DNA of 62,787 nt from Clostridiales bacterium. Its GTDB lineage: Bacteria; Bacillota; Clostridia; Oscillospirales; CAG-382. Within the stretch, counting starts at the first letter, position 1. Every line of letters begins with the position of its first letter. Of this stretch, positions 17,196-53,714 are shown one piece after another. The stretch spans positions 1 through 62,787 of the forward strand of contig JAEESG010000003.1 of the NCBI GenBank assembly GCA_016286245.1. Reading direction: 5' to 3'. The position numbers were made by a program, and so were the translations under genes. The notes under the pieces are model-generated. The model made no database searches, was not told the origin of the DNA, and worked only from the letters and a program-made list of their open reading frames with translations.

Positions 17196-18063
17196 ATTCT
17201 TTTATAATTCTTTCGGCAAGCTTTACAAACTGCGTTTCGTCGAGTTCTTCTCCCCTGACGTTTGCGTCTTTGCCGAGCGTTTCAAAAATTATTTCCTTCA
17301 GCTCTTCCTTGTTGTAATCGCAGACCTGCGAAAGTGCGTTTATCAGCGTTTTCCGTCTTACCGAAAACGCCGCTTTGATGACTTTTTTCGCCTTTTCTAT
17401 CTGTTCGTCCGTAAATTTTGCGGGTTTATACATGGAAATTCTCACGACGGCGCTGTCAACCTTCGGTTTCGGCACAAAGCAGCCCGCCGGCACCGAAAAC
17501 AGCTTTTTTACACTTCCGTAAAGATTAAGAGATGCGGTAATGCTTCCGTAATCCGCGCTTTTCGGTGCGGCGGTAAGCCGCAGCGCAACTTCCTTCTGCA
17601 CCATTACGGTAACGTAGTCGAAACCGTGATACGTTTCGGCAAGCTTCATGAGTATCGGCGTCGTTATATAATACGGCAGGTTTGCGCAGACCGAAACGTG
17701 AAGCCTTTTTCCGTCTTTTTCCCTCTCGCTTTCGAGCAGTTCGGGAAGATTTATCTTCATAATATCCCCGAAAATCACCTTTACGTTCGGGTATTCCGCG
17801 AGCGTTTCCGCAAGCACGCCCTTTAATTTTTCGTCTATTTCGACGGCAAGTACCTTTTCAAATCTTTCGGCAAGCTCCTTTGTCAGAATTCCCGCGCCCG
17901 GCCCTATTTCGAGAACGAGCGCGGGTATTTTTCCGTCGCCGTTTCTTTCTCCGTATTCCGTGCAAGCGTCCGCTATTCTTTTCGGAACCTTCGGATCGCG
18001 CAGAAAATTCTGTCCGTATTTTTTCTGAAAGGTAAAGCCGTGTCTGTTAAGTATTTCCGACAT
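17194..18063 (-). CDS. rsmA: 16S rRNA m6,2A dimethyltransferase
   Basis: KKYGQNFL, LEIGPGAG, ANLPYYITT, MVQKEVA, PKPKVDSAV. Confidence 0.96.
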   Translation of the reverse strand: MSEILNRHGFTFQKKYGQNFLRDPKVPKRIADACTEYGERNGDGKIPALVLEIGPGAGILTKELAERFEKVLAVEIDEKLKGVLAETLAEYPNVKVIFGDIMKINLPELLESEREKDGKRLHVSVCANLPYYITTPILMKLAETYHGFDYVTVMVQKEVALRLTAAPKSADYGSITASLNLYGSVKKLFSVPAGCFVPKPKVDSAVVRISMYKPAKFTDEQIEKAKKVIKAAFSVRRKTLINALSQVCDYNKEELKEIIFETLGKDANVRGEELDETQFVKLAERIIKE

Positions 18064-51895: not shown

Positions 51896-52936
51896 TTATA
51901 TTCCGAATGCGCCCGCAAGCTTATCCTCTTTCATTTCCGAGCCGATAACGCAGATTTTGCCCGTAACGTCGGACGAGCCTTTTCTCACGTTTCTTTCGCC
52001 CGGCACGTAGTCAAAATGCGCCCATGAGCCGTCGGCAAGCTCGACGATTCCCTTTGCTCTCAGCACGAATCCGTACTCTTTTTCGTCTTCCAGCTTATCA
52101 AGCGCGCTTTCTATTTCTTCCAAAGTAAATTTGTGCGCTGTTTCAACTCCCCAGCTTGAGAAAACCTCGTCCGCATGATGATGGTCGTGGTCGTGGCAGC
52201 CGCACGTACAGTCGTCGGGGTGTTCGTGTTCATGCTCATGGTCGTGATGATGTTCGTGCTCGTGGTCGTGATGATGTTCGTGCTCGTGTTCATGCTCATG
52301 CTCATGCTCGTGCAGCATCTCTTTAAGTTCATCCTCGAGGGTTTTGGCATTTTCCATCGTCGAGAGAATCTGCGCGCCGGAAAGCTTATCCCACGCCGTG
52401 GTTATAATCGCGGCGTCCTTATTGTGCTCCCTTAAAATCTCGACGCATTTATTCAGCTTGTCCTCGGAAATATCGGACGTTCTGCTTAAAATTATCGTTT
52501 TTGCGAATTCCACCTGGTCCGAGAAAAATTCGCCGAAGTTTTTCATGTACATTCTGCATTTATTCGCGTCGACGACGACCACCGCGGAGTTCAGCGCCGA
52601 TTTTCCGTTTTCCGCGCCCATTACCGCCCTTATCACGTCGCTGAGTTTTCCCACGCCCGACGGCTCTATAAGTATTCTGTCGGGAGAAAACTTTTCAAGC
52701 ACCTCAGACAGCGCTTTTTTGAAGTCTCCGACGAGGCTGCAGCATATACAGCCCGAATTCATCTCGTTTATCTGTATGCCCGATTCCTTCAAGAACCCGC
52801 CGTCAATGCCCGTCTCTCCGAATTCGTTTTCTATAAGCACGAGCTTTTCGCCCTTATACGCTTCCGAAATGAGTTTCTTTATGAGCGTCGTCTTGCCCGC
52901 TCCCAGAAATCCCGAAAACACGTCTATCTTTGTCAT
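51896..52936 (-). CDS. CobW/COG0523 metallochaperone GTPase
   Basis: SGFLGAGKTT, ENEFG, GCICC, IEPSG, His-rich insert; start MTKID. Confidence 0.92.
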   Translation of the reverse strand: MTKIDVFSGFLGAGKTTLIKKLISEAYKGEKLVLIENEFGETGIDGGFLKESGIQINEMNSGCICCSLVGDFKKALSEVLEKFSPDRILIEPSGVGKLSDVIRAVMGAENGKSALNSAVVVVDANKCRMYMKNFGEFFSDQVEFAKTIILSRTSDISEDKLNKCVEILREHNKDAAIITTAWDKLSGAQILSTMENAKTLEDELKEMLHEHEHEHEHEHEHHHDHEHEHHHDHEHEHEHPDDCTCGCHDHDHHHADEVFSSWGVETAHKFTLEEIESALDKLEDEKEYGFVLRAKGIVELADGSWAHFDYVPGERNVRKGSSDVTGKICVIGSEMKEDKLAGAFGI

Positions 52937-53147
52937 TTGTTTTTGTCCTTTCAGTTTTGCAATTTTATTATATATAACTATACATAGTATATTATATATC
53001 ATCGCGTTCAAAAAAGCAAGAATATTATCTTTTATGCACCCGAAGTTTTTTCCGACAGGTCTTCTCATTTTTCCCCGAAAACCGCCGTATTGTGCCGAAA
53101 TCCCCCTTTTCCGTCCCAGTTATGAATATTCATTTTACATTTTTGCA

Positions 53148-53176
53148 TTGAAAAAATCGAACATTTGTGCTATAAT
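53148..53176 (+). promoter_or_regulatory. sigma-A promoter with a LexA-like SOS box in the spacer
   Basis: TTGAAA-17-TATAAT with TG; GAAC-ATTT-GTGC (53159-53170), one mismatch from GAAC-N4-GTTC. Confidence 0.6.
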
Positions 53177-53208
53177 TATGACAGTAAACGGTAAAGGAGG
53201 AAGAAAAA

Positions 53209-53469
53209 ATATTCAGCGAAATCATCGTTGCCCTCATAGGACTTGCGGGCAGCGCGGCAGGCTCGCTTTGCGGCATTATCGTTTCGGGAAAGCTTACCGA
53301 ATACAGGCTTAAACAGCTCGAACTGAAAGTCGAAAAGCACAACAGCCTTATTGAAAGAACGTACGCGCTTGAACAAAAGGCGGGCGTCTGCGTCGAGAAG
53401 ATAAAATCGGCGGAACGCAGAATAGACAGTCTTGAGCGCAAGTGCGAAATATCAAATAAACAGTTTTAA
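53209..53469 (+). CDS. phage lysis-module-type membrane protein (N-terminal TM plus coiled coil); ATA start; absent from the ORF track
   Basis: AGGAGG, 8 nt, ATA; translates (M)FSEIIVALIGLAGSAAGSLCGIIVSGKLTEYRLKQLELKVEKHNSLIERTYALE..RIDSLE..F, 86 aa; resembles holin-adjacent proteins of Bacillota phages as I recall them. Confidence 0.7.
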   Translation: MFSEIIVALIGLAGSAAGSLCGIIVSGKLTEYRLKQLELKVEKHNSLIERTYALEQKAGVCVEKIKSAERRIDSLERKCEISNKQF

Positions 53470-53478
53470 GGAGATTTT

Positions 53479-53679
53479 ATGAGAAAAATATTGAAAAAAT
53501 TCACAAGCAGAAAGTTTTTGGCGGCGTTCGCGGGTGTCTCCGCGGGAATTTACATGATTTCCTGCGGCAGCGTCTCCGAGGGAACGACGGCGATCGTCGC
53601 TTCCGTCGTATCGTATCTTGCGGCGGAGGGGATTATTGACGCGAAAAGCGCCGGCGCGTCCGCTGACGAAAAAGAATAA
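53479..53679 (+). CDS. putative phage-type holin
   Basis: 66 aa, basic N-terminus KFTSRKF, two hydrophobic segments, Y..AEG..DA, charged tail; RBS AAGGAG. Confidence 0.6.
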   Translation: MRKILKKFTSRKFLAAFAGVSAGIYMISCGSVSEGTTAIVASVVSYLAAEGIIDAKSAGASADEKE

Positions 53680-53714
53680 AAAATAACGGCGGGTTTTCCC
53701 GCCGTTATTTTTTT
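53678..53714. terminator. bidirectional terminator
   Basis: AAAAAATAACGGCGGG/CCCGCCGTTATTTTTT. Confidence 0.85.

Follow-up and report, generated by a model that had tools for sequence, protein, structure and literature searches.

A putative holin gene pair behind a predicted LexA operator as the probable lysis arm of a dispersed, gene transfer agent-like system in an uncultured clostridial bacterium

Here we report a computational analysis of a small two-gene unit at positions 53148-53714 of a 62,787-nt stretch of DNA (the window), which is the whole of contig C23 in the 1.59-Mb draft genome (146 contigs, 95% complete) of a Clostridiales bacterium of the order Oscillospirales, whose genes were predicted with a codon-usage caller. 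The unit encodes two small membrane proteins, ORF1 and the putative holin ORF2, behind a promoter that overlaps a predicted LexA operator, and we judge it, with a probability of about 0.65, to be the lysis arm of a LexA-controlled, vertically inherited, multi-locus, short-tailed system resembling gene transfer agents (GTAs). A preliminary description of the unit, made from the letters of the window, had suggested a domesticated, DNA damage-inducible lysis module that acts in trans and might serve, for instance, a dispersed GTA. That suggestion gains support from the same operator-promoter being found ahead of an M23 endolysin gene and a tail-fibre gene, from two perfect boxes at the promoter of a head and packaging gene cluster, and from the conservation of this arrangement in relatives. 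All of the elements that the preliminary description had listed for the unit itself (promoter, box, two membrane-protein genes, ribosome-binding sites and terminator) are present:

53148..53176, forward strand: sigma-A-type promoter, TTGAAA (53148-53153), 17-nt spacer and extended -10 TGcTATAAT (TATAAT at 53171-53176), score 11/12
53159..53170, forward strand: predicted LexA-type operator GAACATTTGTGC, 7/8 core positions of GAAC-N4-GTTC, between -35 and -10
53193..53200, forward strand: Shine-Dalgarno sequence AAAGGAGG of ORF1, read directly, 8 nt ahead of ATA 53209
53209..53469, forward strand: ORF1, 86 codons, N-terminal transmembrane helix plus coiled-coil-like tail
53467..53473, forward strand: Shine-Dalgarno sequence TAAGGAG of ORF2, read directly, overlapping the ORF1 stop codon
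53479..53679, forward strand: ORF2, putative holin, 66 aa, ATG start, two hydrophobic segments
53678..53713, no strand: bidirectional intrinsic terminator, 16-pair stem with 7 G-C pairs, T runs on both strands

The overlap between the stop codon of ORF1 and the Shine-Dalgarno sequence of ORF2 makes translational coupling of the two genes possible. Among four metagenome runs compared with the unit, an independent one (X3, which spans 52900-53190) showed no difference from the window across promoter and operator (53148-53176), and two (X2 and X10) span inner parts of the unit only.

The link between this unit and other loci of the genome begins with its promoter. The 18-mer GAACATTTGTGCTATAAT, which comprises the box and the -10, has exactly three copies in the genome versus 8.6e-5 expected from base composition, and these precede the holin pair, the gene of the M23 endolysin (contig C125) and the tail-fibre gene (contig C135). 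The box alone is within chance in the window, since GAACWWWWGTKC has one match there and 18 of 100 shuffles also gave at least one. Genome-wide, five of the seven GAACWWWWGTKC sites lie at head, fibre, endolysin and holin loci, and a scan for the box ahead of endolysin, capsid or tail genes, which the preliminary description had proposed, was thus positive at the endolysin, fibre and head loci. The GTGC half-site of the operator also provides the TG of the extended -10, and may represent a compromise in which most of the operator is kept and the extended -10 TG is supplied.

The head locus is a nine-gene head, packaging and short-tail cluster on contig C10, situated between pgi and rplJ and composed as follows:

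Genes 1-3: 73-aa Cys-rich protein; TerS (GP3_package); TerL
Genes 4-6: P22/SU10-type portal; scaffold-sized protein; 214-aa protein
Genes 7-9: major capsid protein (MCP; Phage_capsid_4); 224-aa protein; 616-aa protein with tail-appendage matches

The promoter of the cluster (TTGACT-17-TGgTATAAT) is bracketed by CGAACAAAAGTTCG and GAACATTTGTTC, both of which are perfect GAAC-N4-GTTC boxes, and no integrase or replication genes were found in the cluster. As would be expected of a GTA, phage-like head and packaging genes are therefore fixed in the chromosome without modules for replication, integration or lysogeny, and the loci, four on four contigs, have a common type of operator. A short GC-rich hairpin followed by TAATTTTT was also observed between the head promoter and the second box (L003 2620-2650, on C10), with counterparts at the same place in several relatives; this leader hairpin may be an attenuator or an anti-termination target. 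In one relative of the same genus (L030) a hairpin-rich stretch of ~90 nt occurs twice in tandem upstream of the head cluster.

On contig C125, GAACATTTGTGCTATAAT stands ahead of a gene whose product matches Pfam Peptidase_M23 (E 5e-23) and several endolysin PHROGs, and which is followed by thrS. No N-terminal hydrophobic segment is apparent by eye in this endolysin, and its gene, like the holin pair, is a separate transcription unit with its own terminator. An SLH domain that seemed visible by eye in the C-terminus of the protein was discarded, the Pfam match not being significant (E 0.084). The M23 gene lacks a canonical start codon, both here and in the two nearest relatives (L004 4016-4035; L043, L044): an ACG (L004 4030-4032) lies 8 nt after AGGAGG, at the position occupied by ATG in six species and by GTG in one, and an ATA lies two codons upstream of it. 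Since three species share the ACG state, sequencing error is an unlikely cause. On contig C135, GAACATTTGTGCTATAAT precedes the gene of a 755-aa protein with matches to tail-fibre PHROGs, and a D-Ala-D-Ala carboxypeptidase-like gene is among the housekeeping neighbours of the particle loci.

Comparison with 12 other species genomes of the same genus (the genus relatives) and with more distant genomes suggests that the head cluster may be inherited vertically. The portal is present in all 12 genus relatives; elsewhere in the family it was found in 5 of 12 other genera, while single genomes from other families, 16 in all, yielded none. The head cluster occurs as one copy in nearly every genome. 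In all 11 loci read the order of the head genes is the same, with MCP identities of 72-94%. The box is retained as well, since at least one lies within 700 nt upstream of terS in all 12 loci, this genome included, and at least two in 10 of the 12, typically around a strong promoter. Identities of the portal track those of RecA (Spearman 0.75, n = 16, from genomes that as kin are not independent), and the chromosomal position of the cluster is common to the nearest species only. No integrase, replication or repressor family was found among 39 ORFs flanking the cluster in seven relatives, 17 of which have Pfam matches, all to housekeeping families. A capsid-forming satellite resembling a phage-inducible chromosomal island was considered and rejected, as there are no integrase, primase or regulator genes beside the cluster. 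A search of 50,697 phage records found no close relative, the best matches being 32% identity over 45% of the query for the MCP and 20-24% for the portal. Searching 301 genomes of the order with an MCP profile, we found members of this protein family in 19 of them, drawn from 7 of 30 taxonomic families, and in one further family two loci retain both gene order and boxes. The named records with close MCPs (64 loci, found by exact peptide words) are all from uncultured gut or rumen Clostridia, and the label Faecalibacterium appears neither among those 64 loci nor among the best 120 of 772 MCP homologues, all of which have >70% identity.

Boxes are kept in relatives at the head, fibre and holin loci alike, which answers the check on conservation that the preliminary description had called for. 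The N-terminal 150-200 residues of the tail fibre are conserved in 10 of the 12 genus relatives and the remainder is variable, which is the usual pattern of receptor-binding proteins. Every fibre promoter read (10 of 10) has GAACWWWTGTGC directly ahead of its -10, and seven have a second box upstream. At all five holin-pair loci, this one included, the operator reads GAAC(ATTT/AAAT)GTGCTATAAT, and promoter, operator, ribosome-binding sites and terminator of the pair are conserved in all five species; in two species the pair also has the neighbouring cobW gene seen here. A full-length M23 orthologue is present in 9 of the 12 genus relatives.

A genome of another genus (G016) holds the lysis genes in a different arrangement. 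A 104-aa protein with a transmembrane segment and coil, a 66-aa homologue of ORF2 and the M23 enzyme are encoded there by one cassette, in which the ORF2 homologue ends 13 nt ahead of the M23 gene; the window, by comparison, has no endolysin gene beside ORF2. The cassette has the promoter TTGACT-17-TATAAT with an identical GAACATTTGTGC; on its contig, the head cluster is 65 kb away. Although the 104-aa protein has no significant similarity to ORF1 (E 0.078), it is the analogue of ORF1 in the cassette. Of all the data, this cassette speaks most strongly for ORF2 acting together with the M23 enzyme. Since G016 holds one joint cassette, the split arrangement in this genome seems to be the derived one. 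Two further observations concern the same genome. It encodes two paralogues of ~245 aa with DUF6291 (E 6e-16 and 6e-15; L159 725-1465 and L160 735-1460, both on the reverse strand), each behind a double-box promoter that ends in the 18-mer of the lysis cassette; these genes may be further members of the regulon, and no homologue of the DUF6291 proteins was found in the genome studied here. In addition, a small conserved protein of 65-71 aa ending in PVQDADDL adjoins both the lysis cassette of G016 (L052 2680-2877, reverse strand) and the tail-fibre gene of this genome (L005 1093-1308, reverse strand), which hints that fibre and lysis genes once shared a neighbourhood with it.

The preliminary description had assigned both proteins of the unit to the holins, from their general pattern, and this assignment is only partly upheld: ORF2 is a holin candidate by weak or transitive homology, by architecture and by the gene order in G016, whereas ORF1 is not a recognised holin. 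ORF2 has the build typical of holins, being small, with two hydrophobic segments (about residues 13-30 and 36-55) and charged termini, its eight Lys/Arg residues being mostly near the N-terminus and its C-terminus acidic. The search with profile hidden Markov models of holin families that the preliminary description had proposed gave a divided result, as ORF2 itself reached only E 0.46 with its best PHROG match (phrog_9987, holin), while some of its relatives did match such families. A profile built from the 19 closest relatives of ORF2 recovered 688 proteins at E <= 0.001, and we scanned 150 sequences, consisting of ORF2 and the best 149 of its profile relatives (E <= 1.6e-8). Within this set the holin family phrog_297 was matched by 20 sequences (best E 8.4e-11), phrog_9987 by five, and phrog_962 and phrog_2879, both also annotated as holins, by one each; in Pfam, Phage_holin_10 was matched by three sequences and Phage_holin_1 by one. 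The G016 homologue of ORF2 matches phrog_9987 with E 0.0049.

In ORF1 a single hydrophobic segment at the N-terminus precedes a charged tail of heptad-like character, and we class the protein as an accessory protein of lysis cassettes. Over its full length it matches phrog_1863, a family of phage proteins whose function is unknown (E 3.7e-11; residues 4-78 aligned with positions 2-94 of the 97-position profile), and it is weakly similar to Pfam XhlA (PF10779), with 17.3 bits against a cut-off of 34.7 bits and over the coiled-coil part only; a precomputed PF10779 match is present in 2 of the 120 ORF1 homologues listed. More than 200 homologues of ORF1 occur in uncultured Clostridia. A homologue was examined in three phage records, and in each it is placed after tail or hyaluronidase genes; in Blautia phage Montmirail and Streptococcus phage Javan74 the next gene or genes are annotated as holin and/or lysin, and the record of Streptococcus phage 858 gives no gene names. 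An NCBIfam scan assigned neither ORF1 nor ORF2 to a family, and a protein-language look-up, to be taken as a lead only, placed both among small viral proteins. The ratios of non-synonymous to synonymous substitution (dN/dS; three species each) are 0.09-0.19 for ORF1 and 0.15-0.21 for ORF2, and values this low indicate that both genes are under purifying selection.

The reading frame and ribosome-binding site of ORF1 are present as the preliminary description had said, but it had missed that there is no canonical start codon. The open frame contains no ATG, GTG or TTG, and its sole start codon under genetic code table 11 is ATA at 53209. Positions 53209-53214 read ATA TTC, where the nearest relatives have ATT TTG or AAA TTG, and a TTG start has been lost; close relatives have TTG or ATG at the start position. 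A longer, frameshifted ORF1 beginning at ATG 53178 was rejected because that ATG directly follows the -10 hexamer and is in another frame.

Several features identify the box at 53159-53170 as a predicted LexA operator. It is a GAAC-N4-GTTC-like inverted repeat that overlaps the promoter (GAACATTTGTGC, 7/8 core positions), and LexA, which would be expected to bind it, is encoded in the genome (208.5 bits). The promoter of lexA itself has GAACTTTTGTTT, with a similar box at the same place in all 12 genus relatives. The LexA motifs given in PMC4234289 are GAACN4GTTC in Bacillus and GAACnnnnGTTT/GTTC in clostridia, and the boxes found here are nearly identical to the core of the Clostridioides difficile recA operator described there, GAACAAATGTTT. 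They therefore share with the operators of Bacillota and clostridia the form GAAC-N4-GTT(C/T), an A/T-rich spacer, the overlap with the promoter and a motif for lexA autoregulation (PMC4234289). A GTGC half-site fused to the -10, as found here, differs from the motifs listed in that paper.

What the sequences show is gene content, shared operators and conservation. Taken together, these data suggest the following mechanism, in which binding by LexA, induction, the activity of the holin, the formation of particles and the kind of DNA packaged are all inferred. A particle derived from a short-tailed phage would have been domesticated, with its genes at four or more separate chromosomal loci, and ORF2, as the putative holin, together with ORF1, as an XhlA-like accessory protein, would form its membrane-permeabilising part. 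In the undamaged cell LexA would occupy the operators and keep all loci silent. Upon DNA damage, activation of RecA would lead to self-cleavage of LexA and to joint transcription of all loci; capsids would assemble, and the terminase would fill them, most probably with host DNA as in GTAs. The holin, aided by ORF1, would then open the membrane, allowing the cytoplasmic M23 endolysin to reach the wall, so that the cell bursts and particles are released. Possibly, the non-canonical start codons (ATA on ORF1, ACG on the endolysin) act as a translational brake on lethal genes. A more far-reaching and only tentative version, which we find doubtful, holds that the LexA switch has largely been handed over to the capsid system, that the weak starts are a second check, and that domestication was independent of that of FpGTA, the GTA of Faecalibacterium prausnitzii. 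DNA damage would then lead mainly to altruistic lysis and export of packaged host DNA, with lysis depending on the state of translation initiation.

A number of observations weigh against the interpretation of the unit as the lysis arm of a LexA-controlled, GTA-like system. ORF2 itself matches none of the curated holin families, whether in Pfam (E <= 1) or in NCBIfam, and tblastn found no match to it in the 50,697 phage records. ORF1 without a canonical start may be defective or an assembly error, since its ATA rests on one assembly and, of the runs, only X1 covers 53209; X1 is near-identical to the window, which may derive from it. As regards LexA, no GAAC-N4-GTTC box, with up to one mismatch, was found upstream of recA (C26), uvrA (C143) or uvrB (C107), the classical SOS genes, which is a difference from the described LexA operators of Bacillota and clostridia; because these three genes are boxless, the operator is tied to LexA only through the lexA promoter and the published consensus. 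Possibly, the LexA regulon of this small genome is much reduced. The loose form of the motif is not enriched genome-wide (nine strand hits versus about 7.5 expected), and the lysis genes have one imperfect operator whereas the head genes have two perfect ones, from which the usual SOS logic (PMC4234289) would predict that the lysis genes are released first. Conservation is also uneven. The holin pair, searched for with ORF1, was found in only 4 of the 12 genus relatives, a box lies within 200 nt upstream in only 5 of 13 M23-orthologue loci and is lacking over that distance in six species of the genus, and at one M23 locus in another genus a different holin-like gene is situated ahead. At six more distant head loci the genes are ordered differently and the cluster is not preceded by boxes. 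Finally, since the genome is a 146-contig draft, the description of the loci as dispersed rests on their housekeeping neighbours and on the 65-kb separation in G016.

Some of these observations could be accommodated by other explanations. The unit might be an SOS-induced module for autolysis or export that is independent of capsids and that, with the M23 enzyme, serves programmed lysis or the release of extracellular DNA or other cargo, having a regulator in common with the capsid genes for no other reason than that both respond to DNA damage. Holin-like proteins do release some clostridial toxins and bacteriocins, and such a module would fit the separate terminators of the holin pair and endolysin gene, the six M23 orthologues without a nearby box, and the detection of the pair in only 4 of the 12 genus relatives when all have the head cluster. 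It is at odds with the identity of the operator-promoter 18-mer at holin, endolysin and fibre loci, with the operator of the holin/M23 cassette in G016, which also occurs at fibre promoters in the genus studied here, and with ORF1 belonging to a family of phage lysis-cassette proteins; moreover, no toxin or bacteriocin gene was seen beside the loci, and we regard this explanation as improbable. A similarly small chance is given to the proposal that the box is the operator of some other dedicated regulator without coupling to DNA damage, a role for which the 73-aa protein is the obvious example, as this conserved small protein with two CxxC-type motifs opens every head cluster. The boxless recA, uvrA and uvrB would be explained in this way, as would the identity of the boxes at the satellite loci over 18 nt, which extends beyond the LexA core. 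Nevertheless, the motif is in the promoter of lexA, with a similar box in all 12 genus relatives, the LexA operators published for Bacillus and clostridia agree with the boxes (PMC4234289), and the satellite promoters are near-consensus and would have no need of an activator.

Two further explanations dispense with domestication or with function. If the loci belonged to a still-mobile element, either an unusual phage or a capsid-forming satellite, whose remaining genes are on unassembled contigs, the holin pair would be an ordinary lysis cassette split off by draft assembly or rearrangement. The fragmented assembly, with endolysin and fibre contigs of only 5.5 and 4.9 kb, leaves room for this, and the patchiness of MCP relatives (7 of 30 families of the order) and the boxless, rearranged clusters at the six distant loci would be in keeping with it. 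However, the flanks are housekeeping genes everywhere (pgi and rplJ, thrS, the D-Ala-D-Ala carboxypeptidase-like gene, cobW and an ABC transporter), the seven relatives have no integrase or replication gene beside the cluster, the cluster is present as one copy in nearly every genome and in all 12 species with identities that track RecA, and the head and lysis loci of G016 are 65 kb apart on one contig, which together make a mobile element quite unlikely. That the holin pair is a functionless leftover of a decayed prophage is very improbable: the loss of the canonical ORF1 start in this genome would agree with decay, but both frames are intact and have dN/dS of 0.09-0.21, all five species keep the regulatory signals of the pair (promoter, operator, ribosome-binding sites, terminator), and there are no other phage remnants in the window.

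Pfam searches at E <= 1e-5 gave no phage-related match for any of the 46 other genes predicted in the window; those with Pfam matches are housekeeping genes, as the preliminary description had maintained, and several have no match. Near the unit are genes for RNase J, two CobW-type GTPases, an ABC transporter and SerRS, with a purine operon further away. The description of the unit as lacking both prophage and endolysin holds for the window but not for the genome, as the M23 endolysin gene is on contig C125, and no decaying prophage was found at the holin-pair locus in this genome or its relatives; the preliminary description had named such a prophage in relatives as something that would overturn its view. 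The CobW-type GTPase gene adjoining the unit (51896-53068, reverse strand) encodes a long His/Glu/Asp-rich tract (HEHEHEH...HHDHEHEHHHD); such tracts are typical of metal chaperones and the gene is thus ordinary, yet it is a handy synteny marker for the holin-pair locus. Elsewhere in the genome, on contig C86 (about 18046-18057), GAACGTATGTGC was observed 5 nt after the -10 of a strong promoter (TTGACA-17-TAAAAT) that precedes a 483-aa gene, dnaA-like by eye.

What appears to be new in these loci is the shared operator linking dispersed parts, the boxless classical repair genes, and the non-canonical starts on lethal genes. Capsid-mediated export of bacterial DNA is common in gut Clostridia, and its genes and control are unknown for most taxa, according to PMC12946183 and a preprint (bioRxiv 10.64898/2026.07.08.737213). 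A LexA operator fused to an extended -10 is a simple, searchable signature that ties together head, fibre, endolysin and holin genes in these uncultured bacteria of the ruminant gut. If our interpretation is correct, the full gene set of such an element could be found by operator search and not by synteny, and these bacteria should be driven to lysis and gene export by conditions that damage DNA, some antibiotics among them. The operators would be directly testable with LexA protein and the lysis genes by expression assays, and the ACG and ATA starts on lethal genes, if real, would constitute an unusual safety device.

The closest described system is FpGTA, to which the loci reported here, known from their genes alone, can be likened by description. 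FpGTA is a short-tailed particle of ~40 nm that carries about 8.5-9 kb of host DNA; ten ORFs make up its core operon, and the genes of its fibre, holin and endolysin lie in a second operon at a distance of 125 kb (PMC12946183). Both systems are short-tailed, phage-like, chromosomally fixed and from gut Clostridia of the Oscillospirales type; both have a core operon of ~10 kb with TerS, TerL, portal, scaffold, MCP and conserved unknowns; and in both the fibre and lysis genes are elsewhere in the chromosome, with replication and integration genes in neither (PMC12946183). They differ in that the accessory genes form three single units here and one second operon in FpGTA, and in that all loci here have LexA-type operators whereas "LexA" is absent from the main text of the FpGTA paper (PMC12946183). 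In the supplement of that paper the FpGTA MCP is named as "N4-gp56 family" and the endolysin as "peptidase M15", in contrast to the M23 endolysin here; the MCP of this genome had no NCBIfam match at E <= 0.01, so the N4-gp56 name was not reproduced. For FpGTA, particles and packaged DNA have been shown (PMC12946183), whereas here there are genes only, and the two may have been domesticated independently. GTA-like packaging has been reported in Oscillospiraceae and other families, with the genes not identified (PMC12946183; Borodovich et al., Nat Commun 2026), and core and lysis clusters have been proposed in other gut Clostridia, with no mention of LexA or SOS in the available part of the preprint (bioRxiv 10.64898/2026.07.08.737213). 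A full-text literature search found no description of LexA-operated GTA loci in Clostridia.

Two better-known systems offer partial parallels. In the xhlA-xhlB-xlyA genes of PBSX, the SOS-inducible defective phage of Bacillus subtilis that packages host DNA, the gene of a small membrane-associated coiled-coil protein stands just before that of a small holin, and both proteins are needed together with a cytoplasmic wall hydrolase. ORF1 departs from XhlA in remaining below the cut-off (17.3 versus 34.7 bits) and in having its membrane segment at the N-terminus, and the PBSX genes, unlike those here, are contiguous in one prophage-like region with an Xre repressor and no known LexA box for each gene. 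The GTA of Rhodobacter capsulatus (RcGTA) has a head-tail cluster with fibre and endolysin/holin genes elsewhere, co-regulated and vertically inherited. It differs from the system proposed here in being siphovirus-like, in belonging to an alphaproteobacterium, and in being controlled by CtrA, GafA and quorum sensing, with an indirect influence of LexA only, and it is not known to have a shared operator at each promoter. What the clostridial loci have in common with RcGTA is a multi-locus "genome", as that of RcGTA is described in PMC5026251.

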